Source: a virus
Strand: one strand, 5' to 3'
Virus record (IMG/VR): IMGVR_UViG_3300035695_000001
Location: 1 to 64,000 of that record
DNA: 64,000 nt
In this document: piece after piece, positions 1,542-21,346 of the stretch
Layout: each line of letters starts with the position of its first letter
How positions within the stretch are numbered: position 1 is the first letter of the stretch
Translations under genes and position numbers: made by a program
Notes under the pieces: model-generated
Database searches by the model: none
What the model was told of the DNA's origin: nothing
The model's input: only the letters and a program-made list of their open reading frames with translations

Positions 1542-1603
1542 CCTCGCGCAGACCCTCCGGCCTACCAGGCGCGGGGGGTTCTTGCGTAGGAGGTGATCAC
1601 ACC

Positions 1604-2218
1604 ATGTCCAGCAGCAAGAAGGCCCGGCCGATGTCATCCGCGTCCCCCATGTCCCGCGTGCTGCCCCCGCCGCAGCGCAGACGCAAGAATGTGGTCGTGG
1701 AGGATGGCGGCGCGATCGTCCAAGTGAACACGCCGCTCGGGGTCGTGTACGTCAAGGCGGACACCATTTCGTCCGGACCCGGTGACGCCAGGCGCCGTGT
1801 GGAGGTCCGCGTCTCCAAGGACAGCGGCAACTTCCTCGCCAGCGAGAGCGCCACCACGCTGGCGATCCTCGACTACGACCCCACCACGCAAAGCGCTCCC
1901 GTCAAGGCTTGCGTCCTGACCCGAGAGACCTTCCTGGGCTTCGAGTGCGCCGGCTTCTACGCTCGCGTGAAGAGCCGCAACGACAACCGCGTGCGCGTCC
2001 GCACCTACAAGGACCCGCAGAGCGCCGTGACCTTCATGGCGCAGAGCGTCGGCCGGAGCCCGAACCTCACTGCCAGGACGACGGACGGCGACGTGCCCAT
2101 CCTCGACGGCAAGGGGGCGCTGCTGCCTGGCGCAGCGGACGCGCTGCGCTGCCTGCTGAACGATGACGAGGCCGCCCTGCTCGACCTCTTCGGGGTTGGG
2201 AAGCCGCCCAGCAAGTGA
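1604..2218 (+). CDS. hypothetical protein
   Basis: SD AGGAGG before ATG 1604; high GC3. Confidence 0.75.
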   Translation: MSSSKKARPMSSASPMSRVLPPPQRRRKNVVVEDGGAIVQVNTPLGVVYVKADTISSGPGDARRRVEVRVSKDSGNFLASESATTLAILDYDPTTQSAPVKACVLTRETFLGFECAGFYARVKSRNDNRVRVRTYKDPQSAVTFMAQSVGRSPNLTARTTDGDVPILDGKGALLPGAADALRCLLNDDEAALLDLFGVGKPPSK

Positions 2219-2274
2219 GCGCTCGCCCCGAGGCTTCCAAGCCGTCGGGGCTGAGCCCGTGAAGGAGGTCAACC

Positions 2275-2883
2275 ATGTACGTGCTGGTCCAGAAGGTCAA
2301 CGACGGGGTCACGTTCTACCCGTGCAACAAGGCGGGCGTGCCCAAGAAACTCCCCAGGCCCAAGCCGACGTTCCGAGGCAAGAGCAAGCCGGCCGAGATC
2401 GGGCCTACCACCCGCCTGGCCCTCGATGCGGCCGAGGAGTGGTACCGAGCCGAGGTCATGGCGGCGTTCGACTCCGGCCCGATGAAGGGGTGCGGGTACG
2501 CCGATGACTTCCGCCAGCACGCCTACACCAAGGACGGGGAGGGTGGCCGGTTCCTCAAGTTGGAGCCGGTGGGCTTCGCCATCGTCGGCGATGACGGCCA
2601 GGTCACGATGAACGACTCGGGCAGCACCCCGACGACTGGCCGCGCCAAGGTGCTCGCCTGCTACCAGGCCCCGCTCCTCAAGGTGAAGAGCACCGAAGGG
2701 GAGGGCTGGTGGCGCTTCGAGCGGATCGTCACGACGGAGCCGGCCGAGGTACCGATCCGTGGCCTCGACAAGATGCGCAAGATCCACCGCGTCATCCCTC
2801 CGGTACCGGCACGCGCGACCTGCGCCAGTCCGGAGGGGCAGCGTCGAAGCGCCGAGTCGACGGACTTGGACCGGCGACAGTGA
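2275..2883 (+). CDS. hypothetical protein
   Basis: SD AAGGAGG; high GC3. Confidence 0.8.
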   Translation: MYVLVQKVNDGVTFYPCNKAGVPKKLPRPKPTFRGKSKPAEIGPTTRLALDAAEEWYRAEVMAAFDSGPMKGCGYADDFRQHAYTKDGEGGRFLKLEPVGFAIVGDDGQVTMNDSGSTPTTGRAKVLACYQAPLLKVKSTEGEGWWRFERIVTTEPAEVPIRGLDKMRKIHRVIPPVPARATCASPEGQRRSAESTDLDRRQ

Positions 2884-2947
2884 CAGCGCACAGTCCGGGG
2901 GCCTCATGGCCCGCCGGGCTGCTGCCGTTGGAAGGAGCCACGTACCC

Positions 2948-3193
2948 ATGCGTCACGACTACGACCCCACGTCGATCCAGGACCCGGCAGCGCGCCGGGC
3001 AACCATCCTCGCCAGGGCCCGCGCCAAGGTCCGGCCCCCCGTCACGGTCGAGCAAGCGAGGGCCGCTACGGCTCTCCTGGCGGTCGCCCAGAGGTCTGGC
3101 GACCCCTCGGAGATCGAGGAGGCCGAGGCCCGCGAGCAGGCGACGTGGGAGGCGTTCGACGAGAGCGCCGAGCGGCCGAAGGAGGCAGCGTGA
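2948..3193 (+). CDS. hypothetical protein
   Basis: SD AAGGAG before ATG 2948; GTGA overlap with next gene. Confidence 0.7.
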   Translation: MRHDYDPTSIQDPAARRATILARARAKVRPPVTVEQARAATALLAVAQRSGDPSEIEEAEAREQATWEAFDESAERPKEAA

Positions 3194-3651
3194 CCCGCGC
3201 AGAGATGGTGGCCATCGTGGTAGCGCGCACGGCCGGAGCGAAACAGCCGATGCGGCACACGCACATCGAGTGCTGGTGTCCGGACCGGGAGCATCGACGC
3301 GACGACTACGACGAGGGCTGCTTCTGCCCACCATGCGCGAGCGAAGCAGCCGTGGCGCTCGGCTACCCGGCCACCGACGCCGAGCCGGAGGCCGAAGGGG
3401 CGGACGACGGCCCGCGCTTCTGCCAAACCTGCGACCGTCTCATCACCCTCCGGAGCACCGACGACATCGAGTGGGGCGTCACCCTCGACGGCGCCTTGGA
3501 TGAGTTGGCCCACTACGAGACCGGGCTCGGATTCGAGCGAGGCGAGCCCAAGACGCCCGAAGACTGGCAGGTCTTCCTGCTCATGGTCGACGCCATCGCC
3601 GAGGAGCACCTGCCCCGGGTCGAGGCCATCATCATGGCGAGGGCGTCATGA
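3190..3651 (+). CDS. Zn-finger-like hypothetical protein
   Basis: CxxC pairs (CPPC, CQTC); coupled start and stop. Confidence 0.7.
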   Translation: MTRAEMVAIVVARTAGAKQPMRHTHIECWCPDREHRRDDYDEGCFCPPCASEAAVALGYPATDAEPEAEGADDGPRFCQTCDRLITLRSTDDIEWGVTLDGALDELAHYETGLGFERGEPKTPEDWQVFLLMVDAIAEEHLPRVEAIIMARAS

Positions 3652-3914
3652 CCACCGCGAAGACCTACACCGTGCTCGCCACCGACTCGTCGGCGTGCCT
3701 CGCCGAGCACGTCACCGCGGAGGAAGCCCTGGAGGCTCACTCCAAGGCAGGCTTCAAGGCGACCATCTTCGACGACTCGGACAACGACCCGGCGTGCATG
3801 GTCGAGATGGGCGGCGCCCTGGCCTGCGAGTGCCACCGATGCGACCCGGGCCACGTCGACCCGGATCAGGACTGGGGTGGCGAGGCCGAACTGCGGGAGG
3901 AGACCAGACGATGA
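3648..3914 (+). CDS. hypothetical protein
   Basis: ATGA coupling; CECHRC motif. Confidence 0.65.
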   Translation: MTTAKTYTVLATDSSACLAEHVTAEEALEAHSKAGFKATIFDDSDNDPACMVEMGGALACECHRCDPGHVDPDQDWGGEAELREETRR

Positions 3915-4000
3915 CGGAGCGCACACCCCGGGGCTCATCGTGAGCTGCCGGGGCTTCGTGCTGAGAGAGCCTGTAGGCTCAACCAGAAGGAGACGACCCC

Positions 4001-5077
4001 ATGTCATTCGACCCCAAGGCAGCGAAAGAGAAACTCGACAAGGCCATCCAGACCGGCGTGGCCCAAGCCAGCACCACGGTCCAGCGGGTGCTCAGCACCG
4101 TCCCGGAGGACGCGATCGTCCGGACCCGCTCGCTGGCGTGGGAGCCGCGGGAGCGGGACGTCGCCATCGTCTTCAACGGGCAGGCCCACCCCATCCACGA
4201 GCACGCCATGCGCCAGATCGGCGAGGTGGCCGGCATCCCCCGCGCTTACGTCGAGTCCCTCATGACCGAGGGCACCCCGCAGCAGCGCCGGGCCCTGCTC
4301 GCCCACAACCTCCGCGAGATGATGGCGGAGCAGCCGGAGACCAAGCGGCACCTCGTCCGCACGGTCGGCAACAGCGTCCGAGGCTTCCTGTCCGACTCCT
4401 ACCGGCGCCTCGACTCCCGCCCGCTGCTCTCCGCCTTCGTCGAGGAGGTGGATCGCTTCGGGGCCGTGCCCTACAGCGGCCGTGCCGGCGACGTCCGCTC
4501 GACGCTCAAGGCGATCATCCCGCGGGTCCTGATCGCTGGCGGCGACGCGGTCGCCTTCGGCCTCCAGTGGGAGAACAGCGACTTCGGCGCCGGGGCGCAC
4601 AGCATCCGGGCCTTCCTGCTCCGGCTCACCTGCCTGAATGGGGCCACGACGGAGGACAACCTCCGCCAGGTCCACCTGGGCAAGCGCTTGGAGGAGAGCA
4701 TCGAGTTCAGCGCGAAGACGCTTGCTCTCGACACGCAGGCCAACGTCTCGGCGCTCCGAGACGTCGTCAAGGCGGCGCTCCTCCCGGCCAAGATCGACAG
4801 CCTCATCGCCCGCATCGACGCCGCGCAGGCCAAGGAGGTGAACTGGGGCGGACTGAAGACCAGGCTCGCCAAGGCGCTGAACAAGGGCGAGATGACGGCG
4901 GCCGAGACCGCCTTCCTCGGGCCCGACGTCGAGAACCTCCCCCCCGCCCCGACGCTGTGGCGGGCCAGCAACGCCCTGTCGTGGATCGCCAAGACGGCGA
5001 CGCCCGACCGGGCCCTGGAGTTGGAGAAGCTCGCGGGCGGGATCCTGGAGAACAAGATCGTCGCCGAGGCCGCGTAG
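4001..5077 (+). CDS. DUF932-family phage/plasmid protein
   Basis: RGFLSDSYRRLD and LRLTCLNG motifs; TLWRASNAL near the C-terminus. Confidence 0.75.
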   Translation: MSFDPKAAKEKLDKAIQTGVAQASTTVQRVLSTVPEDAIVRTRSLAWEPRERDVAIVFNGQAHPIHEHAMRQIGEVAGIPRAYVESLMTEGTPQQRRALLAHNLREMMAEQPETKRHLVRTVGNSVRGFLSDSYRRLDSRPLLSAFVEEVDRFGAVPYSGRAGDVRSTLKAIIPRVLIAGGDAVAFGLQWENSDFGAGAHSIRAFLLRLTCLNGATTEDNLRQVHLGKRLEESIEFSAKTLALDTQANVSALRDVVKAALLPAKIDSLIARIDAAQAKEVNWGGLKTRLAKALNKGEMTAAETAFLGPDVENLPPAPTLWRASNALSWIAKTATPDRALELEKLAGGILENKIVAEAA

Positions 5078-5165
5078 CCTCCCGCCCTCCTGATCGATGA
5101 GTACGGCGCACACCCCGGGGGCTCCACAGCCCTGCGGGGTTGTGGCCGTGTAGGAGGTTCACACC

Positions 5166-6164
5166 ATGACGACCACGACGACCGACAAGACCGACCCGCG
5201 CATCGACAAGGCCCGCAAGATGTTCGCCGAGCGGTGGATCCTGGCCCTGTGCTACGGCACTCAGGCTCCCCTCACGCTGACGGACCACGACTCCGGCTGG
5301 CGGGACATCGAGAGGCACGCCGGCAAGCGCAGAGCGCTGCTCAAGGTGCTCGTCGAGATGGGCTACATCTGGCGCAACGGAGACAAGGACCAGATCACCG
5401 ACAAGGGATTCGCGGAGTCCTTCCTCGACTCCGGCTCGGTCGACTTCTCCCACTTCGTCCCCGAGGGCAAGTCGGTGTGGGAGTACGAGCACGAGGTCAG
5501 GCCCGGGAGCTTCTTCGACTCCGACGGGCTCCCGCTCGGCGTTCGGTGCTTCATCGCCGCCCACCACGACCGCTTCCAGTTCTTCGACTGGGACCCGTAC
5601 ACCAAGCGAGGCACGCCGATCGCCTTCGGTTCCTTCGCCAAGAAGGAGTCGAGCCACAGCATCCTGGTCGCCGACGCGGCCTACACGGCGAAGTTGACCG
5701 CCGAGAAGGACGCCGCGCAGTTCCGGGAGGTCTCCGGCGCCAACCTCGCGCACGGGATGGTGAAGATGGGCTACGCCGAAGAGGCCACCAAGCACGTCTT
5801 CCGGAACGGCAAGCACGACGGCCCCTTCGGCGTCCTGCGATTCGGCACCGACCCGAAGCAGTGGCAGGCGGAGAGCGCCGCCAGGCAGGAGAAGATCCGG
5901 AAGGAGATCGTCGCACTCGCCGAGGAGTTGACCGCCCTGGAGTACGCCGAGAACAAGATGCTCCTCGCCGCTGGGGTCGAGAAGACGCTCTCCCAGGGCG
6001 TCACGGAGGAGGACCGCACGAAGGCGTGGGGCATCTTCCTCGCCGACTACGAGCGGGAGGTCCGGGAGCAGATCGCCAAGCAGAAGGCGTTCGAGGCACA
6101 GCAAGCGGCGGCGGGGTCCATCGACGAGGGCTGCGTGGACGCCAGCCGACGCCGGGAGCAGTAG
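5166..6164 (+). CDS. hypothetical protein
   Basis: SD AGGAGG; high GC3; C-terminal coiled coil. Confidence 0.8.
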   Translation: MTTTTTDKTDPRIDKARKMFAERWILALCYGTQAPLTLTDHDSGWRDIERHAGKRRALLKVLVEMGYIWRNGDKDQITDKGFAESFLDSGSVDFSHFVPEGKSVWEYEHEVRPGSFFDSDGLPLGVRCFIAAHHDRFQFFDWDPYTKRGTPIAFGSFAKKESSHSILVADAAYTAKLTAEKDAAQFREVSGANLAHGMVKMGYAEEATKHVFRNGKHDGPFGVLRFGTDPKQWQAESAARQEKIRKEIVALAEELTALEYAENKMLLAAGVEKTLSQGVTEEDRTKAWGIFLADYEREVREQIAKQKAFEAQQAAAGSIDEGCVDASRRREQ

Positions 6165-6242
6165 CAGCGCACAGCCGGGGCCTCCTACAAGTGGGCGCCC
6201 GGCTTCGCCGTTGCGAGCCGTAACTCGCAGGAGGAGACCAGC

Positions 6243-6872
6243 ATGGATCAGATGGTGGACGAGGTGACGGAGCAGCCCAAGAGCAACGGGATCACGGTGA
6301 CCGTCGAGGGGGTCGACATCCTGCCCGGGTGGGAGGGCCGCGTCTCCTGGGCCGGCAGCTACCGCTGGCTCAAGATCGTCGGGCACTTCGAGCACGCGGT
6401 CGAGGAGGTCGGCATGACCTTCCGCCTGGACATGCACTCGGAGTACAGCGGGATCCGGTGCGACTTCTCGGAGACCCACGACGGCAGCAAGGAGGACGGG
6501 GACAAACTCTGGCAGGCCACCTGGGGCACCGACGGCTTCGTCGCCCTCTCGTACGCGACCCCGCCGCCCCCGAAGATCGCCGCCATCCTCCACGCGAAGG
6601 CCAAGGCCGCCTTCGACGCCTACGAGCGGCCCCTGCTTGCCCGGTACACCGACACCTGCATGGCCATGCTCGACGCCGACCAGTACGACCGCGCGGCGAC
6701 GCGGGACCGGGACCTGGCCTGCAACATCCTGCGGGAGTTCCGCAAGGCCACCAGACCCAAGCCCGCCGAGCCGGACGAGGACGAGGAGCCCAAGCGGGTG
6801 TCCCCCGCCCAGGCGTTCGTCGACCTGACCGGGCTCCCCGTGGGGCTGCCCGCGGGCGAGGCGGAGGCGTAG
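6243..6872 (+). CDS. hypothetical protein
   Basis: SD GGAGGAG; high GC3. Confidence 0.8.
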   Translation: MDQMVDEVTEQPKSNGITVTVEGVDILPGWEGRVSWAGSYRWLKIVGHFEHAVEEVGMTFRLDMHSEYSGIRCDFSETHDGSKEDGDKLWQATWGTDGFVALSYATPPPPKIAAILHAKAKAAFDAYERPLLARYTDTCMAMLDADQYDRAATRDRDLACNILREFRKATRPKPAEPDEDEEPKRVSPAQAFVDLTGLPVGLPAGEAEA

Positions 6873-6901
6873 CGGTTCTCCCGCAACCGAACGATCCAGA
6901 T

Positions 6902-6929
6902 TGTCTAGCAGTGCCTCAAGTGCTAGACA
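6902..6929. promoter_or_regulatory. Paired operator/promoter motif TGTCTAGCA-N10-TGCTAGACA
   Basis: Intergenic inverted pair; also reads TTGTCT-N17-TAGACA (sigma70-like). Confidence 0.75.
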
Positions 6930-7014
6930 GTGACCAGGCGCACGACCCCGGCTCTACCAAGAGCGCGGGGTCGTGGCGTTGCCGGGGACCAGATCCCCGC
7001 AGGAGGATCCTACG

Positions 7015-7392
7015 ATGGGCATGACGAAGAGAGACATGCTGCTGCTCCGCGCCGAGTTCCCGGCGCGCCCTGGACTGCTGCCGTTCGGCGTCGTCCTCTA
7101 CTTCCAGCCGGCACGACCGAGCGTGTCGATCAACGAGCAGCTCCAGGACGTGCTGGATGGCAAGGGCAAGTTCATCGTCCACGACGAGCGGCACTGCGAC
7201 GGCGAGAACGCTGGCGAGATCGCCTACGACAACGGCTCGTACTTCGAGCGCCCCGCCGACGATCGCGCGTATGCCAACGCCTACAAGGAGTTCCGGCGGC
7301 GGGTGGACAAGCACCTCGCCGACTGCGACAACGACGCCAAGGCCGAGGTCAACCCCATCGAGCGGATCCTCCGCTACCGGGGGTCGCGGTGA
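7015..7392 (+). CDS. hypothetical protein
   Basis: SD AGGAGG before ATG 7015. Confidence 0.75.
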   Translation: MGMTKRDMLLLRAEFPARPGLLPFGVVLYFQPARPSVSINEQLQDVLDGKGKFIVHDERHCDGENAGEIAYDNGSYFERPADDRAYANAYKEFRRRVDKHLADCDNDAKAEVNPIERILRYRGSR

Positions 7393-7790
7393 AGCGGCCC
7401 GACGGCACAAAGAGCGCCCCCTTCACCTACAGGATGTCTCGGGGCGAGGCACGCGACTGGGCCAACAACGACCCCGAGGACGTCCGCAGAGCGGTGCGCC
7501 GGACCTATCCCCGAGGCTACGTCCGGATCGTGCATCCGACCCGCGGGAACGCGCTGGTGGAGGTGCTCCAAGATCCTGGCTACGCGCCTCCCGCCAAGCC
7601 CAAACGCCAGCCGCCGAAGCCGCCGAACAAGGACACCTTCGAGGCGAGAACCAACGAGGCCATCAACTGGCTGACCGCGGCGCAGTCCGCCGAGCGCAAA
7701 GGCGACATGGCCGAGGCCAAGCGCTGCGTAAGCGCCGCTCGCGACGAGATCCACCAGGCCGAGATGACCATGGTCGAGAGGGCCGAGTGA
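7389..7790 (+). CDS. hypothetical protein
   Basis: GTGA coupling at both ends. Confidence 0.65.
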   Translation: MKRPDGTKSAPFTYRMSRGEARDWANNDPEDVRRAVRRTYPRGYVRIVHPTRGNALVEVLQDPGYAPPAKPKRQPPKPPNKDTFEARTNEAINWLTAAQSAERKGDMAEAKRCVSAARDEIHQAEMTMVERAE

Positions 7791-8053
7791 GCCGCCGCGT
7801 CCAAGGCTGGGAGAAGGACAAGGCAATCATCTCCCTGTTCGAGATCCTCCGCGACTTCTCGGACATCGACGCGCTAGCGCGTTTCGCTGAGACCGCGCCA
7901 CGCATCGACCCGAAGGTCAAGGCCCGGATCCTGAGCATCCGCAACGCCTACGGGCGAGCCGCCGTCAAGTTCGTCGGTGGCCTCCCGCCCGAGTTCTTCC
8001 GCAAGGAGCGGCAGGCCACCAAGCAGAACGCTCGAAAGAAGAGGGCAGGATGA
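7787..8053 (+). CDS. hypothetical protein
   Basis: GTGA/ATGA coupling. Confidence 0.6.
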   Translation: MSRRVQGWEKDKAIISLFEILRDFSDIDALARFAETAPRIDPKVKARILSIRNAYGRAAVKFVGGLPPEFFRKERQATKQNARKKRAG

Positions 8054-8265
8054 TCAAAGCGAAGGGGACCGAGCACTGTTCATGGTGCCTCGGCGGGACG
8101 ACCAAGGGCGAAGACCTGCTGGAGGGCTCCGAGGGGTGCGAGGATTCTGGCGCCCTCTACCACGGCAACTGCTACTCAGAGTTGAACCTGGCCGAGAGCG
8201 GCGAGTTCGACGACGCCGAACATGAGAAGCGCTTCAAGGCGTGGAAGCAGAGGATGGGGGCGTGA
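8050..8265 (+). CDS. small hypothetical protein
   Basis: ATGA coupling; CSWC...HGNC motif. Confidence 0.6.
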   Translation: MIKAKGTEHCSWCLGGTTKGEDLLEGSEGCEDSGALYHGNCYSELNLAESGEFDDAEHEKRFKAWKQRMGA

Positions 8266-8942
8266 GCAAGCCTGGCGCCATCTTCTCGATCGGCATGGGG
8301 CAGCGCAGGGGATCGAAGAACCGCGAGCCCCTCTCCTTCGACTCGCCGGCCCCCATCATCGAGATCGTCTCGATGCTCGACGCCGTGCTCGTCGATGTCC
8401 GAGCCCTCGGTGGCCCTGCGAAGCAGGAGGACGTCGAGGTCCGCGGCAACCGGAAGTTCTACGCCGCCACGGGGAGCCCCATCTACGATTGCCGGCACGG
8501 ATTCTGGCGGTACGAGTGGGCCCAGGCGCTCGGGGACCGCTACCGCTACCTCGGCGACCTCCTCGGCGGTCCTGGCGGCGGAATGAAGGGCCCCAAGCCC
8601 GCGGGCATGGACATGCTCGAAGCCTGGCACCGCGCCGGGCAGCGCCTCGTGCTCATGTGCGCGTGCTGGGCGGTTGACGATGGCTGGCCCAACGGGCGGC
8701 TATGCCATCGGCACCATCAGATCGCGACCCGTGGGTCGTACTTCGATCCGAGCCTCCCCGCGCCGCTGCTCGACCGCGGGATCGACGTCGCGCACGTCAT
8801 CGATCTTCGACACGATCTCGCCAGACCGAAGAAGCGGCGGGTCCTCGGCTACGTGATGGCCTCCGACCTGCAACGGGCCATCTCCGAGGGGGAGGGGGCC
8901 GAGTACGACATCCCGAACCTGGACGACCTCCTGAAGGAGTAG
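8262..8942 (+). CDS. DUF488-family protein
   Basis: IFSIG, LVDVR, YLGDLLGG, LMCAC and CHRH motifs. Confidence 0.7.
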   Translation: MSKPGAIFSIGMGQRRGSKNREPLSFDSPAPIIEIVSMLDAVLVDVRALGGPAKQEDVEVRGNRKFYAATGSPIYDCRHGFWRYEWAQALGDRYRYLGDLLGGPGGGMKGPKPAGMDMLEAWHRAGQRLVLMCACWAVDDGWPNGRLCHRHHQIATRGSYFDPSLPAPLLDRGIDVAHVIDLRHDLARPKKRRVLGYVMASDLQRAISEGEGAEYDIPNLDDLLKE

Positions 8943-8946
8943 TGAC

Positions 8947-9153
8947 ATGAAGGACATGACCGACATCATCCTGCCTGGCATGCGGATCTCTCGCGTGGCT
9001 GAGATCCTTTGCGCCAACGCTCCGGCCCGTGCCGAGGTCAACACGGTCACCATGCGGGCGCGCTACGCCACCACCAAGCCCGCCGACGTGGCGGAGCAGT
9101 ACCGCAGGGCTATGCGCGCCAAGTACTCACAGAATCCGGGCCGTGGATTCTGA
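8947..9153 (+). CDS. small hypothetical protein
   Basis: SD AAGGAG; fills the gap before a hairpin element. Confidence 0.55.
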   Translation: MKDMTDIILPGMRISRVAEILCANAPARAEVNTVTMRARYATTKPADVAEQYRRAMRAKYSQNPGRGF

Positions 9154-9213
9154 GACGCGACCACCCCGGGGGCTTCGGCCTTCCGGGGTCTGGCCGTTGA
9201 AGGAGACCACCAC

Positions 9214-10032: not shown

Positions 10033-10087
10033 ACTGCGAGTAGCCGCCGCCCATCTGGGTTGGCGGCTCTCAGCGTTGGAGGAACCA

Positions 10088-10396
10088 ATGCCCGACAAAA
10101 ACGATCCCTACGTCGAGAACTACCCCAACCTTCTCAACTGGCTGACGAAGCACGGCGCCGTCCGCATGGTGGCGATGCCTGTCGGTGAGCTTGGGAAATC
10201 GACGGGTCACCGTATCGAGTGCTGGCGGTTCAAGAACAACAACATGGCGATCGTCGCGATCTATGGGGATCAGCGCGGCTGGGACATCTTCACCGCCAAC
10301 GATGGGGGCGACAGTACCAGCCGGAAGACCTTCACCGACGCGGAGGCCAGACTCGGGCTCAAGCGTGTCATCCGCAGCAAGAGTAAGGCGTCGTGA
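10088..10396 (+). CDS. hypothetical protein
   Basis: SD GGAGG before ATG 10088. Confidence 0.7.
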   Translation: MPDKNDPYVENYPNLLNWLTKHGAVRMVAMPVGELGKSTGHRIECWRFKNNNMAIVAIYGDQRGWDIFTANDGGDSTSRKTFTDAEARLGLKRVIRSKSKAS

Positions 10397-12093: not shown

Positions 12094-12306
12094 TTGAGCG
12101 GCCCCCACGACCCCGACGACGACGCCCTGTGCTGGAACGGCTGGGGCAGGGCCACGGGCTCCTCCTTCTCGGTGCTCCACCCGGATCTGCTCTCTGGGAG
12201 GAGAGCCTTCGGGCACTGCGTCGCGGTACCGGCCCTGTGCAACGGGCTATGCGCTGGGCTCTGCACCGAGGAGGACGAGGCCCGAGCCAAGGCGGAGAGT
12301 GTCTAG
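12094..12306 (+). CDS. small Cys-containing hypothetical protein
   Basis: TTG start overlapping TGA; high GC3. Confidence 0.4.
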   Translation: MSGPHDPDDDALCWNGWGRATGSSFSVLHPDLLSGRRAFGHCVAVPALCNGLCAGLCTEEDEARAKAESV

Positions 12307-12331
12307 CACCACGTCCAATGTGTGCTAGACA
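12300..12331. promoter_or_regulatory. Paired operator motif TGTCTAGCA-N14-TGCTAGACA
   Basis: Same motif as 6902, followed by the same GTGACCAGG. Confidence 0.75.
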
Positions 12332-12418
12332 GTGACCAGGACGACGCGCACACCCCGAGCCGCAAGGCTGTCGGGGTCGTGGCGTTGAGGCGGCTTGTGC
12401 CGCCGGAGAGGATCCGCC

Positions 12419-12721: not shown

Positions 12722-12790
12722 CCACACGGTCCGGCGCACGCCTCGGGGACCTTCGGGTCTGCCGAGGCTGGCGTCGTAGGAGGCATCACC

Positions 12791-13264: not shown

Positions 13265-13530
13265 GCGCCGACGTGACCCGCGAGAGGGAGGCCCTCTTCA
13301 CGCTGGCGACTGGCAAGAGCCCGAACGAGGCGCCAGAAGCATGGAGGAAGTTCTTCGATGGCTTCACCGAGTTCGCCAAGAACTACCGCAACCGGGCGCT
13401 GAGCGACGCGCAAGAGGCGGTCTGCAAGTACCAGCCGATCCCGACGGAGGACATGAAGCCGGCCTACCGCCGTGGCTTCGAGGACACCCGCGCCGCGTGC
13501 GGGCTCGCCGTGCTGGAACTCAAGTCGTAG
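13261..13530 (+). CDS. hypothetical protein
   Basis: GTGA coupling. Confidence 0.65.
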   Translation: MSADVTREREALFTLATGKSPNEAPEAWRKFFDGFTEFAKNYRNRALSDAQEAVCKYQPIPTEDMKPAYRRGFEDTRAACGLAVLELKS

Positions 13531-13586
13531 GGCGCACGCCTCGGGAGCCTTCTGGCTTGCCGAGGCTGGCGTCGTAGGAGGTGACC

Positions 13587-14054
13587 ATGGAGACGTTCAA
13601 GGAAGTCCTGGCGCGGTGCAGGCTGGGCAACGGACCGTCGCAAGAGGACGACCCGGAGGACTGGGACGAGAGCGGGCGGGACACGCGCTGCGCCATCTGC
13701 CGCGACGAGATGTGCATCTGCGGCAACTGCTACGACTGCGAGCACGACACCGACGAACGACACGGCTGGTCCCCGTTGACGACGGAGTACCTGGAGGACG
13801 GCAGGACGCGCCCCTGGCGCAACGGCAAGGGTCGGTACGTGATCAAGGACCGCGACGACGGGCGCTACATCGGTCGGGAGCTGGATGGCGGCACGCCCGC
13901 GATCCAGTGCTGGCCTAGCAGGCTCACGCGCCACGTCATGCACTTCCGAACGAGGAGCGCCGCGCAGAAGTACATCGACGACGGCAAGACTGGGTTCCCG
14001 AAGCACGAGCACAGCGTCCGCCGTGTGCGAGCGCTGAAGAAGGTCACGAAGTGA
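13587..14054 (+). CDS. Cys-rich hypothetical protein
   Basis: SD AGGAGG; CAIC...CICGNCYDC. Confidence 0.75.
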   Translation: METFKEVLARCRLGNGPSQEDDPEDWDESGRDTRCAICRDEMCICGNCYDCEHDTDERHGWSPLTTEYLEDGRTRPWRNGKGRYVIKDRDDGRYIGRELDGGTPAIQCWPSRLTRHVMHFRTRSAAQKYIDDGKTGFPKHEHSVRRVRALKKVTK

Positions 14055-14272
14055 CCCCGCTCGGAGACGAACTGGACCGGCTCCGGCGCGAGGCGCTGCT
14101 GAACGCCGAGACCACCACGGGCGACACCCGAGAGCAGTGGCGCGGGGAGGCCAGGGCCTACGAGAACGCGCGCAGGATGCTCTCCGACCGCGTCGAGCAC
14201 CAGCGCCCTGCGGACCGCCGCACGCTGGCCCTTTGGGGCTTTGGCGAGACGGCAAGGGGGACGGGAACGTGA
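14051..14272 (+). CDS. small hypothetical protein
   Basis: GTGA coupling at both ends. Confidence 0.55.
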   Translation: MTPLGDELDRLRREALLNAETTTGDTREQWRGEARAYENARRMLSDRVEHQRPADRRTLALWGFGETARGTGT

Positions 14273-14718
14273 GGAACCGCAAGCAAGACACCGGCAAGGT
14301 CTTCCGTCGGTTCGACGCTGGCGCCTCCGCTCGATCGAAGGGCGGCGACAAGAACGACTGCCAAGTGAGGGCGCTGGCTACGGCTCGCGGCATCGCCTAC
14401 AACGAAGCCTACAACCTGCTCTACCGGATCCAGGGGGAGCGAGGCTGGTGCTCGTTCTGCCTCGTCGAGGCGCTAGGTGAACTAGACCCTCGGCTCGACG
14501 TCGTGCGCCGTCTCGACTTCCCTGCCGTGAAGGGCAAGCCTCGGATGACGGGGCGCGCGTTCTGCGCTCAGTACCCCTGCGGGCGCTTCATCCTGCGCAT
14601 GTCCCACCACGTCGCCGCGGTGGTGGACGGCGTGCTGACCGACACGTTCGACTCTTCGGAGAAGTGCGTCTACCTCGCCTGGGAGATCGCAGAGGCGGCA
14701 AGGGGAACTGGAACGTGA
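14269..14718 (+). CDS. putative papain-fold (Cys-His-Asp) phage protein
   Basis: NDCQVRALATA...HVAAVVDG...DTFDS pattern. Confidence 0.55.
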   Translation: MRNRKQDTGKVFRRFDAGASARSKGGDKNDCQVRALATARGIAYNEAYNLLYRIQGERGWCSFCLVEALGELDPRLDVVRRLDFPAVKGKPRMTGRAFCAQYPCGRFILRMSHHVAAVVDGVLTDTFDSSEKCVYLAWEIAEAARGTGT

Positions 14719-15134
14719 CCGGCTTCGACGCACGCGCGGCCCTCAAGGCTCGCGACGACATGAAGCACGAGGACTACCTGCTTTCCGAACTGGTGCTGGC
14801 GACCCTGTCCACCAAGCGCTGGTGGACGATCGCCGGCTTGAGAGACAACGTCGGGGCGTTCTACCGTGGGGTGACCGCCGAGGAGGTCGAGCGGGTCGTC
14901 CGAGTCTACCAGGACATCGGAACCGTCGTCTCCAGGCGCGTCAAGGGCCGCAAGGAGCGCTTCTCGACGCTGTGGGCGTTCCGCAAGGCTCATCCCCGCG
15001 GGAGCCTCCGTGGCACGCTGGCGGAGGCCAACGAGCGGCGGCGCCTCTTCCTCGCTGAGGCGCGGGTCAGGGCCGCCGAGATCCGGGAAGAGCAACGCAA
15101 GAGGTGGAGCGCCGCAGGGTCGGCCAATCCGTGA
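14715..15134 (+). CDS. hypothetical protein, possible winged helix
   Basis: GTGA coupling; helical and basic segment. Confidence 0.55.
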   Translation: MTGFDARAALKARDDMKHEDYLLSELVLATLSTKRWWTIAGLRDNVGAFYRGVTAEEVERVVRVYQDIGTVVSRRVKGRKERFSTLWAFRKAHPRGSLRGTLAEANERRRLFLAEARVRAAEIREEQRKRWSAAGSANP

Positions 15135-15156
15135 CCGATCCGGCTGGCGTTCGTGG

Positions 15157-15185
15157 TGTCTAGCAGCGCCGTTCTGTGCTAGACA
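15157..15185. promoter_or_regulatory. Paired operator motif TGTCTAGCA-N11-TGCTAGACA upstream of ssb
   Basis: Exact motif pair in intergenic DNA. Confidence 0.75.
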
Positions 15186-15227
15186 GTGGAGAGCGCTGGG
15201 CATGGTCCCAGGCGCAAGGAGATCAGC

Positions 15228-15803
15228 ATGATCGCTGTGGTTGTGGTGGGGAACGTGGGCAACTTCGAGGTCCGGTACACGGGCGACGGGACGCCGATCC
15301 TGTCCCTCTCGGTCGCGAGCAACGGCCGGGAGAAGATCCACGGCGAGTGGAAGGACGTCGCCACCTGGGTCAAGTGCTCCTGGTTCGGGAAGAGGGCGGA
15401 GAACTTCGGCAGCCTGGTCCAGAAGGGCTCCACCGTCGTGGTGCGGGGGAACCTCACCCTCGGGTCCTTCCAGGGTCGTGACGGGCAGACCAGAACCAGC
15501 CTGGAGTGCCGGGTCGACGACATCGACTTCGCCGGCCCGAAGCGCCAGGACGGCGGAGGAGAGCACGCGCCGGCCCCGCAAGGACAGGGCGGCCAGCGCC
15601 CGCAGGGGCAGCGGCAGGCGCCTGCCACTGGTGGCGGCGGGTACCAGCGGCGGCCCGAGCCGGCGGCAGCACCTCCACCGGCGGCTGGTGGTGGCGACGA
15701 CTACACCGGAGACGTGGACCCCGACGAGGACATTCCTTTCGCCTCATGCTCGATGAGCCACGACCCCATCCTGCGCTCCATGCGTTGGGTTCGCTTCCCC
15801 TGA
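15228..15803 (+). CDS. ssb: single-stranded DNA-binding protein
   Basis: VVGNVG..EVRYT..G, TWVKCSWFGKRAE, KGSTVVVRGNL, Gly/Gln/Pro linker and DEDIPF. Confidence 0.95.
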   Translation: MIAVVVVGNVGNFEVRYTGDGTPILSLSVASNGREKIHGEWKDVATWVKCSWFGKRAENFGSLVQKGSTVVVRGNLTLGSFQGRDGQTRTSLECRVDDIDFAGPKRQDGGGEHAPAPQGQGGQRPQGQRQAPATGGGGYQRRPEPAAAPPPAAGGGDDYTGDVDPDEDIPFASCSMSHDPILRSMRWVRFP

Positions 15804-15836
15804 CATGGGACCGAGCCGGCGGTCATCCCGGCACAC

Positions 15837-15909
15837 CGAGGGATAGCCTAGGTGGATAGGCACCAGTTTTGGGTACTGGTCCACGCGAGTTCGACCCTCG
15901 CTCCCTCGA
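15837..15909 (+). tRNA. tRNA-Pro(UGG), no encoded CCA
   Basis: Acceptor CGAGGGA/TCCCTCG plus A73; D-arm GCCT/AGGC; anticodon stem CCAGT/ACTGG with loop TT-TGG-GT; T-arm GCGAG-TTCGACC-CTCGC. C1:G72 and A73 match Pro identity elements. Confidence 0.92.
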
Positions 15910-15949
15910 CGAAGAAACGGCGGCGCAGACGCGCTGCCAGGAGGACATC

Positions 15950-17683
15950 ATGGCGCAGCAGAGCAGGTTCACCGCAGCGAGTGTCAGCACTGGCCCGGAT
16001 CGGTCGCCGATGAAGACGATCGTCACCGGCAACTCAGGGGACGGCAAGACGTTCTTCGTCTCCACGATCGTGGACTCCAACGGAGGTCCGATCTTCTTCA
16101 TGCCGGTCGAGGAGGGGGCCAAGGGCATGTGCCCGGACGCGAGCCCGGCCGGCTTCCGGCGCGGCGACACCTGGCTCGCTCCGCGCGACCTCCCGGACTT
16201 CTACGACATGCTCGACGCCTTCCTGCACGAGGTCAACGTTCCCGTGGACGTGGAGGGTCCGGATGGCAAGCCGGTGAAGCGCCGCCCCTACCGGCACCTC
16301 GGCGTCGACAGCCTCACTGGGCTGGAGAGGCTGGTCCACCAGTCAGTCTGCCAGATCGAGCAGGTGGGCAACATGGAGGCGAAGGAGTACGGCAAGGTGT
16401 GGAGGGCCGCTGTGCCTGTGTGGCAGGGGGTCCAGAACAAGCTCGACGAGATCCGCCGGAGCGGCGTCAACCTCTGGATCATCGCGCACGCGACCGAGTC
16501 CATCGACGCGAGCGACACCGGGCAGGTGTTCCGGAAGCAGGACATCATGCTCTCCGGGTCTGGCAAGACCCTCGTCGAGGCGCAGCACCTCTGGCGTGGC
16601 TGGACGGACAACGTGTTCTTCCTTCTGAAGAAGGTGAAGGTCACGGCCGGGTCCAAGACGACGCGGGCGATGGCCAAACTCGGCGGGCGCGTGATCGTCA
16701 CCACGGACAACGGCCGGATCTACGCCAAGACCAGGCACGCGCTGCCCCCCGAGATCCCGGCGACGTGGCCGGACCTCCAGCGGGCGCTCAAGGCGGGGAT
16801 GTCGGTCAAGCCGGCCGAGGTCCAGAAGCAGGTGGCCGCGATCCTGCCCAAGTTGGAGCCGGACGACGCGGCACTGATCTCCGCGGACTTGGCCTTGGCC
16901 AAGAGCCCGAGCCAGTTGGCCGCCGTGCTCTCCCGCGCGCAGGGGATGCTCCTCGTGGACCTGGACGATGAGGCTCCGGAGGAGGAACCCAAGCCGGCGC
17001 CGACGAAGCAACCGCAGTATTCGGAGGCACGCCCGCACCCGCTCAGCGCGCCCTCGGACGATGGCGAGGAGGTCCCGCAGTCGGCGCGCCCGCAGGCTCA
17101 GCCTGTCCGTCCAAAGCCGGCCGCCGAGCCTCCTATCCCTCCGCCGCCCGAGAGCCAGCCCTGGGCCGATCCGCCCAAGGCACCTCGCACCCTCGGCGAG
17201 GCGGTCAGCACGGCGGTCGCCGCCGGCATCCTGGCAGCAGAGGCGAAGGACGCCGAGGCGTACAAGGCCGCCAAACTGGGCCTGGTCGCCTACTTCGACG
17301 CGAACAACATCCCGCAGGCCCGGCGTGACCTCGCCGTCGCGCAGTTCAAGGAGCGGGTGGCGCTCGTCGTCGGGCCGAAGGCTGCCCATGGCCCCGTCCA
17401 GCCCGCGGGGCGCCCGACCATGCCCGAGGCAGCGGCGCCGCCCCGCACCGACGGCGATGGGAACCGCTCGGCGGTCTCTCCCCCGCCTCCTACCCCGCGT
17501 CCGGCGAACGGCTCCCAGCAACGGCACGAGCAGCACGGGCCACCGACCCCGCGCTCCGCCCCGTCCACGGCGCTGGCCCCCGAGGACGAGGCCACCCTCT
17601 TCGGCAAGGACCGGCAGCGGCCCGGCAAGGTGGCGCCACAGGAACCGCCGGCCAGGAACCCCGACGATCCCGAAGACTACTGA
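15950..17683 (+). CDS. AAA_24/Sak4-like P-loop ATPase (single-strand annealing) with long Pro-rich C-terminus
   Basis: Walker A GNSGDGKT, Walker B-like LGVDSLT, IIAH and AKTR motifs; adjacent to ssb. Confidence 0.8.
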   Translation: MAQQSRFTAASVSTGPDRSPMKTIVTGNSGDGKTFFVSTIVDSNGGPIFFMPVEEGAKGMCPDASPAGFRRGDTWLAPRDLPDFYDMLDAFLHEVNVPVDVEGPDGKPVKRRPYRHLGVDSLTGLERLVHQSVCQIEQVGNMEAKEYGKVWRAAVPVWQGVQNKLDEIRRSGVNLWIIAHATESIDASDTGQVFRKQDIMLSGSGKTLVEAQHLWRGWTDNVFFLLKKVKVTAGSKTTRAMAKLGGRVIVTTDNGRIYAKTRHALPPEIPATWPDLQRALKAGMSVKPAEVQKQVAAILPKLEPDDAALISADLALAKSPSQLAAVLSRAQGMLLVDLDDEAPEEEPKPAPTKQPQYSEARPHPLSAPSDDGEEVPQSARPQAQPVRPKPAAEPPIPPPPESQPWADPPKAPRTLGEAVSTAVAAGILAAEAKDAEAYKAAKLGLVAYFDANNIPQARRDLAVAQFKERVALVVGPKAAHGPVQPAGRPTMPEAAAPPRTDGDGNRSAVSPPPPTPRPANGSQQRHEQHGPPTPRSAPSTALAPEDEATLFGKDRQRPGKVAPQEPPARNPDDPEDY

Positions 17684-17748
17684 CCAGAGCAGGACCAGCG
17701 GCAGCCCACCCTCCAACCGGAGCGGTGGGCTTTCGCGTCGGAGGCAAC

Positions 17749-18072
17749 ATGAGCGGACCGTACAAGGTGTGGGCTGTCCACCGGAACAACGATGAGCGCA
17801 ACCACGGTCCCGTCACGGACCTGTGCTCGCACGAGGCTCTGGCCACGCAGGTCTCGAAGGGCAGCGGGTGGTACGGCGGGGACGCGCCAGTCGTGGAGCG
17901 CTGGGCCGTCAACGTACACGGGCAGACGTTCCTGCTCGACCCGGCCACCAAGGGGGAGCCTGTCACCATCGCCAGGAACCTCGACGAGGTCCACCTCTCG
18001 CAGGAGGAGACCGTACGGAAAGCAGCGCTGGCGAAGTTGACGCCCGCGGAACGGAAGGCACTGGGTCTGTAG
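17749..18072 (+). CDS. hypothetical protein
   Basis: SD GGAGG; C-terminal ALAKLTPAERKALGL motif common in phage proteins. Confidence 0.75.
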   Translation: MSGPYKVWAVHRNNDERNHGPVTDLCSHEALATQVSKGSGWYGGDAPVVERWAVNVHGQTFLLDPATKGEPVTIARNLDEVHLSQEETVRKAALAKLTPAERKALGL

Positions 18073-18131
18073 GACACTGCGCAGACCCCATGGGCTTCGG
18101 CTTGCTGGGGTCGCGTCCTTGGGAGGTACCG

Positions 18132-18650
18132 ATGAACGGCACGTACGACAGCAAGGCGAAGAAGACCGAGGTCATCCGCGCGATCCTGGTGGCGCTCCAC
18201 CAGATCAAGGGCTGGGAGCACGCCCGCGAGGGGTCGCGAGACGGGAGCCGCTGGATCGACTTCGGCGAGAGGATCTGCGTCGGCATCCACCTGGAGTCCC
18301 CGACGCACGGCACGCCCCGGTGGCGGCTCCAGATCGAGCGATTCGGCGGGCAGTGGTTCCACGAGAAGAAGGGCACCGGCTTCGACTACCCAGGCATCGC
18401 CCAAGCATGCATCGACCTGGTGGCGAGGCGGAGGGCCGAGAGAACTGAGGAGGACCGTCGCGCCGCTCTCCAGGACCAGGCCAATGAGATGGCCCTCAAG
18501 CACGGCGTCGCCATCCCGCTCTCGGTCCGGGAGGAGGGTGGCCGGATCGTGCTCTCCATGCGGGCCAGGCCCGTGACCGAGGAGCAAGTGGAGGCGATGA
18601 CCAAGGCGGCTCGGGCCTGCGGGCTGATCCTGCCGGACGCGGAGGAGTAG
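18132..18650 (+). CDS. hypothetical protein
   Basis: SD GGAGG. Confidence 0.75.
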   Translation: MNGTYDSKAKKTEVIRAILVALHQIKGWEHAREGSRDGSRWIDFGERICVGIHLESPTHGTPRWRLQIERFGGQWFHEKKGTGFDYPGIAQACIDLVARRRAERTEEDRRAALQDQANEMALKHGVAIPLSVREEGGRIVLSMRARPVTEEQVEAMTKAARACGLILPDAEE

Positions 18651-18653
18651 GCG

Positions 18654-19442
18654 ATGGAGACCAGCGAGACGGTGGTGCGCGGAGCAGCAGCGGTGCGCGA
18701 GGCGATGGCCGAGGAGCACCTCAAGATGCAGCGTCGCGCGTACCGACGGGTCCGCCCCTATCTGGTCGGGGCGCTGACCCGCCTACGTCGTGCCTACCCT
18801 GGCTTTCAGACGGTCGTCTTCGGCGCAGAGAAGGCGGCCTTCGTGCTCGTCTTCGGTGATGGGACGTTCCACCACGAGGCGCCCAAGGCGTTCGCTGGGC
18901 TCAAGTCGGCCTGTGAAGACCTGGCCAGGCTCTCCGAGATCGAGTGGCTCACCGCCAGCGATCCGATCTGGCAAGTGCGCCAAGACGGCCAGGTGCTGAA
19001 GCCGTCCGAGATCGTCGTCCAGCAGTACCACTACATCGAGAAGGATGGCTGGACGTTCTGGATGCGCCGCCCCCTGCGCGAGGCGCGGTACTACATTCGG
19101 CAGGCCATCTTCTCCCGCGTGTTCTACGGCGCCCAGCGAGCCGGGTTCGGGAAGCGGATCGTGACCGAAGGCGGCGCCGTCATCGACGAGTGGGTTGACC
19201 CGCTCGAAACGACTGTCCTCCGCGTGTTCCGTGAGAGGGGAGTCCCCATCAGCCTGTACCCGCTGTGCAGCGTGCTCCACAAGACCGCGAAGCACAACCG
19301 TGGCACAGACGACAGCGACTTCTACATCTGGGACGTCCAGAAGGCGTGCAAGCGCCTCGTCGTGGCGGGGTCGCTGCGGCAGATCAACCCCAAGGCGAGC
19401 GAAGGTAGCGAGCGGTTCGTGCTGGCGGAGAAGCGCTCGTGA
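18654..19442 (+). CDS. hypothetical protein
   Basis: SD GGAGGAG; coupled to next gene. Confidence 0.7.
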   Translation: METSETVVRGAAAVREAMAEEHLKMQRRAYRRVRPYLVGALTRLRRAYPGFQTVVFGAEKAAFVLVFGDGTFHHEAPKAFAGLKSACEDLARLSEIEWLTASDPIWQVRQDGQVLKPSEIVVQQYHYIEKDGWTFWMRRPLREARYYIRQAIFSRVFYGAQRAGFGKRIVTEGGAVIDEWVDPLETTVLRVFRERGVPISLYPLCSVLHKTAKHNRGTDDSDFYIWDVQKACKRLVVAGSLRQINPKASEGSERFVLAEKRS

Positions 19443-19693
19443 ACCTCGACGACGCTACCCTCGCCAAACTGCACCGCGACCAGACCGAGGCGGTGGTCGC
19501 CTGGCTGGAGACCAACCGCTCCGAGTGGGACACGGAGCCTGGGAACGACCGCGAGTCGCCGGCTCACTCTCGGAACTGGCTCCTCTCGTCCTTGTCCGCG
19601 TTCAAGTCGATGCTCGCACGCGGCAAGTTCAAGCTGACCGACCCACAGATCAAGTGGGTCCGCGACGTCGCCGAGCGATGCAACATCACCTGA
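19439..19693 (+). pseudogene. hypothetical gene truncated by the IS1341-like insertion; lost 3' end at 20962-21052
   Basis: Removing 19690-20961 restores an in-frame C-terminus ending in TGA that overlaps the next ATG. Confidence 0.75.
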
Positions 19694-20961
19694 TCTCCAG
19701 CGCGGAAGCCCCCGCCTCGGCTCTTGCCAGGCGGTGGAGGAAGCGCTGCTCCGTCCTTCGGGTTGATGTTCGTGTCTTAGACGTGGTACGCCTAGGATCG
19801 TGAAGTTGGTCGCCACCGTCAAGTTGCTCGTGGACGCGGAGCAGAAGGCTCGGCTCCTGGCGACGATGGCCAGGGTGAACGAGGCGTGCGACTGGCTCGC
19901 CGAGCGGGCATTCAGCCTCCAGACCGCCGACAAGTTGCGCCTCCAGAAACTCTACTACCGCGAACTGCGCGACCGCTTCGGCCTCTCCGCCCAGCATGTG
20001 GTCCGCCTGATCTCCAAGGTCTGCGAGGTCTACAAGCGCGACAAGAGCAAGCGCTGCCGCTTCAAGCCGCACGGTGCGATTCCGCTGGACCAGCGGCTCT
20101 ACAGCTTCAAAAACGGGCTCGACCGCGTCAGCATCCTCGCGATCGACGGACGCATCATCGTTCCATGCGCGATCGGGGCCTACCATGCTGGGCGACTCGA
20201 CGGCGCCCGCGGGCAGGCCGACTTGGTCTACCGCAAAGGGGCGTTGTACCTCTTCGTCAGCGTCGAGGTCCCCGATGGCAGCCCCATCGACCTGGAGGGC
20301 TGGCTTGGGGTCGACCTCGGCATCCGTAACTTGGCCGTCGACTCGGATGGCGAGGCACACTCGGGCGAGGAGACGCTCCGCGTTCGATCGCGCATCGCGA
20401 AGCTCCGTGCTGGCCTGCAACGAGCCGGGACGAAGAGCGCGAAGCGGCACATCCGTAAGCTCCGAAGGAGGGAGCAGGGCTTCCACGCCCACAAGAACCA
20501 CGTCATCAGCAAGCACATCGTCCGCAAGGCCAAAGACACCGGGCGCGGGATCGCAGTGGAAGACCTCCACGGCATCCGCGACCGGGTAACGGTTAGGAAG
20601 GCCCAGCGGAGCGCGCTGCACGGCTGGTCGTTCGCGCAGTTGCGCGGGTTCCTCACGTACAAGGCCAGGCTCTCGGGCGTGGCGCTTGTGGCTGTGGACC
20701 CTCGGAACACATCGCGGACGTGCCCGTCTTGCGGCTGCGTCGACAAGCGGAACCGGCCAAGCCAGGCGGGCTTCCGCTGCATCGGTTGCGGTTTTGAGGG
20801 GAACGCCGACCACGTCGGCGCCAGAAACATCGCGACCAGGGCCGTCGTAGTCCGGCCCATCGTAGGGGCTGTCAGGTTGGGTATCGTGCATCTAGCGAGT
20901 CCTCGACCATGCCACCTGCAAAGCCCCAACCTCGCCGCTGCGGCAGGTGGGGGTTGATTAC
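19690..20961 (+). mobile_element. IS200/IS605-family (IS1341-like, tnpB-only) insertion sequence
   Basis: Related subterminal hairpins at both ends. Left: TCAC target (19686-19689) and GAAG guide at +16..+19. Right: AAAG guide before the hairpin and TTAC terminus at 20958-20961. No tnpA. Confidence 0.88.
19800..20957 (+). CDS. tnpB: RNA-guided endonuclease TnpB
   Basis: RuvC D/E/D intact (GVDLG, AVEDL, NADH); zinc finger CPSC...CIGC; TSRTC motif. Confidence 0.95.
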   Translation: MKLVATVKLLVDAEQKARLLATMARVNEACDWLAERAFSLQTADKLRLQKLYYRELRDRFGLSAQHVVRLISKVCEVYKRDKSKRCRFKPHGAIPLDQRLYSFKNGLDRVSILAIDGRIIVPCAIGAYHAGRLDGARGQADLVYRKGALYLFVSVEVPDGSPIDLEGWLGVDLGIRNLAVDSDGEAHSGEETLRVRSRIAKLRAGLQRAGTKSAKRHIRKLRRREQGFHAHKNHVISKHIVRKAKDTGRGIAVEDLHGIRDRVTVRKAQRSALHGWSFAQLRGFLTYKARLSGVALVAVDPRNTSRTCPSCGCVDKRNRPSQAGFRCIGCGFEGNADHVGARNIATRAVVVRPIVGAVRLGIVHLASPRPCHLQSPNLAAAAGGG

Positions 20962-21048
20962 CATCCCGCAGCCACCTGTCCCGAGGGGCCGCGACGTCAG
21001 GCTGGCCTTCGAGGGGAAGCCGCTACCGATGAAGCCACCAGGGAGGAG

Positions 21049-21288
21049 ATGATGGTCCAACTCTACATCGTGGCGAGCCAGGACAGGGCCGCGCAGGTCC
21101 CCAAGGCCGGCAAGGCGCGGGGGCTCGTCCTGGCCGAGAACGCACTGAGCAGGCGGGAGGATCGGACCCGGCCACCGCTCCCGCTCGACAGAGCGCAGAG
21201 GGTCGCCGACGCTCTCAACCGTGCCCACCAAGAGGATGGGCGCCAGCACTGGGTCGAGCCGTGGACGGCCCCGCAGGATCGGAACTGA
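21049..21288 (+). CDS. hypothetical protein
   Basis: SD GGAGG; ATG overlaps the TGA of the disrupted gene. Confidence 0.6.
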   Translation: MMVQLYIVASQDRAAQVPKAGKARGLVLAENALSRREDRTRPPLPLDRAQRVADALNRAHQEDGRQHWVEPWTAPQDRN

Positions 21289-21346
21289 GCGCACACCCGA
21301 GGGCCATGGTGGTCGCTCGGGTCGTGCCGTGAGAGAGGAGAACGCC

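Follow-up and report, generated by a model that had tools for sequence, protein, structure and literature searches.

The early region of a large phage, recorded in IMG/VR as IMGVR_UViG_3300035695_000001 (hereafter G000), is punctuated by copies of a bulged hairpin of ~43 nt that precede the ribosome-binding sites of a series of mostly small ORFans. The window analysed here comprises bases 1-64,000 of this 162,811-bp phage contig, which has a GC content of 68%, is classed as complete and encodes a major head protein, a portal and a terminase. Fifteen copies lie in the window and 24 further copies, all on the + strand, occupy genome positions 148,911-162,340, immediately before window position 1; since the genome is circular, with a 127-bp overlap of the contig ends, G000 therefore carries 39 copies on one strand (+) over 35 kb spanning the contig join, and the window's 15 are the tail of this array. 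The array hairpins are a real repeated element and not a product of chance, they constitute an uncatalogued structured RNA, and their sequences indicate that they most likely function as a + strand mRNA structure. Our tentative reading, which we regard as possible rather than probable, is that a protein recognises this leader hairpin and that translation or stability of the early genes would thereby be controlled jointly.

A covariance model (CM) trained on 20 copies recovered 14 of the window copies at E<=2e-4, along with the 24 upstream copies, and the copy at 17698 was added by the parser, in agreement with the fifteen reported by the first-pass annotation, whose four quoted examples (12739, 2225, 21295 and 10042) are all present at those coordinates with the pairing it gave. 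Its count was right for the window and too low for the early region, where the set continues across the contig join to 39. It had also seen none after 21.3 kb, and indeed neither strand from 21.4 to 64 kb holds a copy (best CM score 19 bits); in the rest of G000 outside the array the CM found nothing >19 bits. A strict descriptor of the hairpin matched 38 times on the + strand and never on the - strand of the 35-kb array, compared with 5 (+) and 12 (-) matches in the other 127 kb of G000 and 0.7+-0.6 matches (maximum 2) in shuffled sequence.

Across 77 parsed copies the element is built of a 5' GCGCA box, an irregular spacer and a lower helix of 6-7 bp with a C-rich 5' strand and a G-rich 3' strand, topped by a variable upper stem of 3-9 bp, often opening with a G·U pair, and a variable loop. 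A single unpaired base interrupts the 3' arm, which had been described as G in most copies and T or C in a few; the majority of G stands, with the counts corrected to G in 69/77, C in 5 and T in 1. The 3' end is CGU, placed 0-3 nt before the Shine-Dalgarno sequence (SD) in 52 of the 63 copies with an adjacent SD. From G1 to the bulge the distance is 13+-1 nt in 71/74 copies, and from the bulge to the U it is 14-16 nt in 61/71; that these distances are fixed while the loop and upper stem vary suggests recognition of shape and bases and not a plain barrier. Predicted fold stability averages -30 kcal/mol. One G000 copy, at genome ~153,013 (L005:10013-10055), is a perfect 20-bp hairpin that has no bulge and retains the GCG and CGU ends.

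In an alignment of 75 copies, which was fitted to the model so that the result leans favourable, two-sided changes occur at 12/12 pairs and 94% of cells are paired; none of 500 shuffles equalled the observed cells paired and covariation score, and sliding the pairing register reduced paired cells to 37-54%. Covariation is strongest in the top pairs of the lower stem and in the upper stem, where the earlier claim of diverging stem sequences with preserved pairing holds, whereas the lower stem is otherwise a conserved C-rich/G-rich helix with C-G at one pair in 73/75 copies. The GCG and CGU ends, which served as alignment anchors and are present in 70/75 copies, could pair yet show no covariation. 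Pairs in the fixed register include 44 G·U and 0 A·C, a count made with a parser that penalises mismatches, and among 49 tetraloops there are 11 UUCG and 9 GNRA, against 0 and 1 in the reverse complements. With G·U pairs and UUCG/GNRA loops confined to the sense strand, it is the + strand that folds, most probably as RNA, and together with the covariation this bears out what the first-pass annotation had proposed. It had also allowed for an already described family, and a CM search of the window against Rfam 15 returned 0 matches at E<=5.

Arrays of the same hairpin occur in two relatives, G001 (IMG/VR 3300010396_000002; capsid 40% identical to that of G000), with 22 copies in 25 kb, and G004 (IMG/VR 3300042090_001664; capsid 73% identical), with 15 copies in 10 kb, while contigs L018 and L268 hold 1 and 2 copies, making 79 natural variants across five contigs. 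In G000, G001 and G004 the strong CM matches are all inside the arrays with none outside, and every array starts from a non-coding leader and points towards one and the same DUF2800-type gene; about 12 array genes are common to G000 and G001, and fewer are shared with G004. Copies are as similar within a genome (0.529) as between genomes (0.529), which fits functional constraint rather than recent duplication, and neither concerted evolution nor a likeness of neighbouring copies was found (median shared exact stretch 7-8 nt). The more distant phage loci L017, L019 and L267 hold no copy, further viral pattern scans returned G001 and G004 only, and a pattern scan of metagenomes gave chance loci for the most part and not a single array.

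The host of G000 is probably a member of the Polyangiaceae, because the phage IS605 TnpB is 79% identical to a protein of a Polyangiaceae metagenome-assembled genome and 55% to the next best, an assignment that we infer from a mobile gene. A CM search over 151 Polyangiaceae genomes, weak in that only 39 candidates per genome were scored, gave a single in-gene chance match. The G000 capsid protein matched no cultured phage, and no CRISPR spacer match to the phage was recognised, the best DNA matches being a short stretch of a clamp-like gene. Metagenome runs containing G000 sequence are from rhizosphere, and those listed as holding it include no RNA run, which says nothing about expression.

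The placement of the copies ties each to the gene downstream. In G000, G001 and G004 the copy of the array's first gene is preceded solely by non-coding leader, the copies at 6938 and 12346 begin a few bases after TGCTAGACA promoter-like boxes, and no copy stands behind the last array gene; taken together, these place the hairpin with the downstream gene. Intergenic spaces mostly consist of the hairpin and SD alone, with the hairpin starting <=4 nt from the upstream stop codon in 26/38 copies and a second hairpin following only ~6/39. A third TGCTAGACA inverted-repeat box lies at window 15157-15188; all three boxes are promoter- or operator-like, and none was found in the G001 or G004 arrays. 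No U-tract follows the stem, as the first-pass annotation had argued in setting intrinsic terminators aside, no sigma-70-like promoter was found in the region of the 24 upstream copies, the window has a single one, as expected by chance, and terminator-like matches on the + strand are in no excess over shuffles. Without U-tracts, and with no internal sigma-70 consensus above chance, the copies cannot all be terminators. All three phages conserve a sigma-54-like -24/-12 motif (GGCACG-N4-CTGC) 820-900 nt ahead of their first copy; in G000 it lies at L005:4990-5015 (genome ~148,000) within a 1.7-kb leader poor in open reading frames (ORFs) and rich in hairpins, and G000 and G001 share a 59-nt leader block at 86% identity. 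The elements themselves were rejected as sigma-54 promoters or N4-type hairpin promoters: they have no -24 GG/-12 GC pattern, it is the coding strand that folds, and no ORF approaches the size of a virion RNA polymerase.

From the observed structure, strand, geometry, position, copy number and spread among relatives, together with the presence of a PHAX gene, we infer that a protein would bind the hairpin, with repression or activation as the outcome. Host polymerase probably transcribes the early block into a long polycistronic mRNA, starting at a leader promoter and at a few promoters within the block. A single RNA-binding factor would then recognise every hairpin beside its ribosome-binding site by the face between base and bulge, and would thereby jointly set translation initiation and/or stability for ~40 unrelated, fast-turnover cistrons. 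A phage-encoded protein with a PHAX RNA-binding domain is the candidate for this reader, and a host factor could also serve. PHAX-type RNA-binding domains are familiar from the export of small nuclear RNA in eukaryotes. In these phages PF10258 scores above cut-off in 3/3 genomes (G000, G001 and G004), and the gene is one of the few non-virion genes common to them. The protein carries the RRTxGGxFF motif and matches the structures of the human and Cryptosporidium PHAX RNA-binding domains by sequence, while its AlphaFold model has as its best PDB match 2w4s, a weak one (E 0.13, TM 0.40/0.49). The G000 gene, whose product has an Arg-rich C-terminal motif, lies on the minus strand at genome 134,575-135,348 (L004:10575-11348); in G004 the gene adjoins the array leader and diverges from it, and in G001 it is 2.8 kb from the first copy. 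The PHAX protein as a candidate reader of the hairpin is a lead and not a result.

Several observations weigh against control by such a reader. The SD itself lies outside the stem, and the copies also abut the upstream stop codon, so that a role facing upstream may apply. In G000 a distance of 13.5 kb separates the PHAX gene from the array; genes with a PHAX domain are also present in 26/251 host-family (Polyangiaceae) genomes, and no convincing hairpin was seen at the 12 host-family PHAX loci examined. One gene common to three related phages is not co-evolution, and the RNA binding of human PHAX is not sequence-specific. A stronger version, in which the PHAX-type domain would read ~40 bulged-G hairpins and make the 35-kb early block a purely post-transcriptional regulon whose control captured genes join, is quite unlikely. 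The nearest known parallel is offered by Aca1 and Aca2, which bind 5' untranslated region (UTR) hairpins of phage early operons (PMC13551039), and by analogy our element may, with similarly guarded confidence, work like these 5'-UTR hairpins scaled up to the whole early region. Both are bulged hairpins with covarying pairs that lie ahead of a start codon in an early phage leader, close to the start of transcription (a putative start in the present case), and both are candidate sites for a phage-encoded protein. However, the Aca1 motif is ~20 nt long, present once per operon and read by a helix-turn-helix (HTH) protein that also binds the promoter (PMC13551039), whereas the present element is ~43 nt long, occurs in 15-39 copies per genome, is mostly intercistronic and has a PHAX-domain protein as its candidate reader. 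Placement between transcription start and start codon fits 3 copies (the array head, 6938 and 12346, with starts themselves putative), the others being intercistronic, and no aca gene was identified, with one HTH_31 match among 56 array proteins. Among the three roles offered by the first-pass annotation, namely processing site, protein-bound leader element and cassette junction, the protein-bound element nevertheless fits best.

In phage T7, five R sites, which are AU-richer and without a shared sequence, stand before the early units. A comparable role here, in which the 3' arm would receive a single nick from the RNase III, or another endonuclease, of the host, is rather unlikely, and the same holds for its presumed outcome, in which the early transcript would give single-gene mRNAs starting just before the SD while a protective hairpin would stay on the 3' end of the mRNA upstream. 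The layout is that of T7 R0.3-R1.3, in that each early unit of the polycistronic transcript, the first one too, is preceded by an irregular hairpin set between stop codon and SD, while the last is followed by none; bulges or internal loops can restrict RNase III to a single cut leaving a protective 3' hairpin (PMC1540722), a precedent in keeping with the fixed helix geometry. However, the GC-rich copies, up to 39 in number, have a bulged G and end boxes in common. In 11/12 loci, although GC is high, an AU-rich core (UUGAAAACU) is retained in the presumed RNase III stem of Polyangiaceae pre-16S RNA, where the CM detects nothing element-like, so of the RNase III role first suggested the layout agrees and the likeness to the host-family substrate does not. 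Moreover, the lower helix is nearly all G-C, GC pairs being antideterminants for E. coli RNase III, the continuous helix is only ~11-12 bp, the two complete phages (G000 and G001) contain no RNase III gene, and cleavage by RNase III leaves a 90%-conserved bulged G unexplained. That conserved G, with the fixed arm lengths and the GCG and CGU ends kept across phages whose capsids are 40-73% identical, also goes unexplained by passive insulators or decay barriers that have no specific reader and would hold GC-rich upstream RNA away from the SD and halt exonucleases; the stable folds (mean -30 kcal/mol) that fill the space from stop to SD, and the bulgeless copy at genome 153,013, would suit such a role, and we give it only a slim chance. 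We also consider it decidedly unlikely that the element is an anti-pausing or antitermination signal, bound by RNA polymerase like put or by an N/NusG-type factor and reloaded at each gene so that a transcript of >20 kb is completed. Sigma-70-like promoters at most at chance level, terminator-like matches not above shuffles, copies directly after promoter-like boxes and the conserved sigma-54-like motif 820-900 nt before the first copy would all agree with it, and put is likewise a cis-acting early-leader RNA with a critical G. The HK022 put RNA, though, is V-shaped with two stems whose junction includes a paired G35, and a single copy per operon is effective over 10 kb (PMC9378689), as opposed to a single stem in 39 copies here; the tight SD spacing would also go unexplained.

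Recombination sites for the shuffling of gene cassettes, whether attC-like hairpins in single-stranded DNA or PeSL-like homology islands, are very unlikely to account for the element. An attC site has an end triplet, an unpaired spacer, a 7-bp box, an extrahelical G on the 3' arm and a variable tip, an anatomy that our element recalls. The cargo is highly mosaic, near-identical copies stand beside unrelated genes in different phages, and G001 shows one exact gain or loss of a unit (hairpin plus 59-aa gene), the extra unit lying between two syntenic genes. G000 also has an empty unit at genome 153,826-153,965 (L005:10826-10965), in which a hairpin, an SD and a 2-codon ORF are followed by ~80 nt and the next hairpin. 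Unlike attC, however, the element has GCG and CGT ends in place of the AAC/GTT triplet, opposite strand polarity, with the folded strand being the coding strand, RNA-type tetraloops and no integrase: tyrosine recombinase (PF00589) was absent from G000 and G001, with 14/14 controls positive. Joints at elements were absent from four runs, a weak test made on contigs only in which the listed joints had 20-26-letter sides, and one unbroken contig spanning 1450-17573 is weak evidence in the same direction. Copies within a genome have not been homogenised, sharing exact stretches of median 7-8 nt, and genes change neighbours inside units. In G000 a DUF488-like gene lies within a unit, whereas G004 and L268 have it immediately after a hairpin; parts found in two separate G000 units are fused in a 757-aa gene of G001. 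The early array also holds a DNA clamp-like gene (L005:16854-18500 and L020:8086-10359), whose G001 version is fused to a domain that G000 and G004 encode within a separate gene. Gene gain or loss exactly at the elements, as first envisaged, was thus seen for one unit, while neighbour changes inside units and a fusion across units depart from it; the clean case in G001 shows that unit turnover can happen, and such turnover looks like a by-product.

The PeSL elements of T4-type phages (PMC2839356, PMC4122927) are close in form, since in both systems dozens of intergenic C/G-tract stem-loops end at an SD in a hyperplastic ORFan region, and gain or loss by unit was observed once here. The present element, by contrast, contains no promoter, having neither a sigma-70 -35/-10 promoter nor an AT-rich tract, nor room for one, and circles or joints were not seen in contigs of the four runs; PeSL-type shuffling, also raised by the first-pass annotation, keeps the single clean unit in its favour and lacks its defining promoter. 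An extremely improbable alternative is that the hairpins mimic type I-E CRISPR repeats and would be cut or bound by host Cas6e/Cas5e, as Racr-like decoys. The 3' half of the hairpins, with 8 nt ending in CG after a run of G, is similar to I-E repeats of Polyangiaceae (handle GTGARCCG), and a few copies match 6-7/8 nt. Against this, the mean match is barely above shuffles (p ~0.03) with the CG accounted for by the 5' box, a bulged stem replaces the repeat's tetraloop, Cas6e occurs in only 18/201 host-family genomes and in none of the phage sequences, no Rfam CRISPR family matched, and a near-complete match to a host CRISPR repeat, by which a solitary Racr repeat is known, is absent. The element thus lacks a defining feature of each of PeSL, attC, put, intrinsic terminators and Racr.

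All window copies lie on the + strand and were found with the CM unless stated. The first (1546..1587, bulge G) follows the DUF3560/methyltransferase gene and precedes the SD of a 204-aa ORF; the DUF3560/methyltransferase gene crosses the contig join (L005:19361 on, window 33-1541) and encodes 621 aa in full. Copies at 2219..2260 and 2886..2928 also have a bulged G, the latter with the top CM score, and that at 3919..3962 has no 3' CGU and a second small hairpin ahead of the SD. A homologue of the 358-aa gene before the copy at 5106..5149 likewise has a copy after it in L018. The copy at 6167..6211 has an irregular upper stem and is followed by a second hairpin, as is that at 6938..6979, placed at a putative transcript 5' end 8 nt after a + strand inverted repeat ending TGCTAGACA (6901..6932) with a presumed promoter or operator function. 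Further copies are at 9157..9197 (UUCG loop, pyrimidine bulge), 10036..10076 (bulge U), 12346..12386 (GCAA loop, near a putative transcript 5' end and just after the second TGCTAGACA inverted-repeat box, identified by sequence at 12300..12334, + strand), 12734..12777 (cUUCGg loop, bulge G), 13532..13575 (90% identical to the 12734 copy), 17698..17738 (bulge C; parser, not CM) and 18079..18116 (UUCG loop, bulge C). The final array copy (21289..21330) is ~85% identical to a G001 copy flanking unrelated genes. A degenerate hairpin at 19700..19750 (+), by the left end of an IS605 tnpB insertion, was excluded from the count; this IS605-type tnpB (window 19750-20960) has no tnpA. A tRNA-Pro(TGG) gene (window 15837-15910) lies between ssb and AAA_24 genes, and DUF3560, methyltransferase and SSB are reminiscent of the anti-defence cargo of plasmid leading regions. 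In the upstream part of the array an ORF with a start that is GIY-YIG-like by eye (genome ~155,125-155,900; L005:12125-12900) follows a hairpin copy that has no SD, and a short coding-like remnant after it suggests an endonuclease insertion that replaced a gene.

To our knowledge, myxobacterial phages are barely known. If the PHAX protein does read the hairpin, this would be, as far as a limited literature search indicates, the first function and the first specific target for prokaryotic PHAX domains; if instead a host nuclease cuts the hairpin, a GC-rich processing signal would have been defined in myxobacteria. With 79 natural variants, the consensus is unusually sharp and mutants to test are already at hand. 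More broadly, the hairpin may let a large phage control dozens of fast-changing early genes without a promoter for each.

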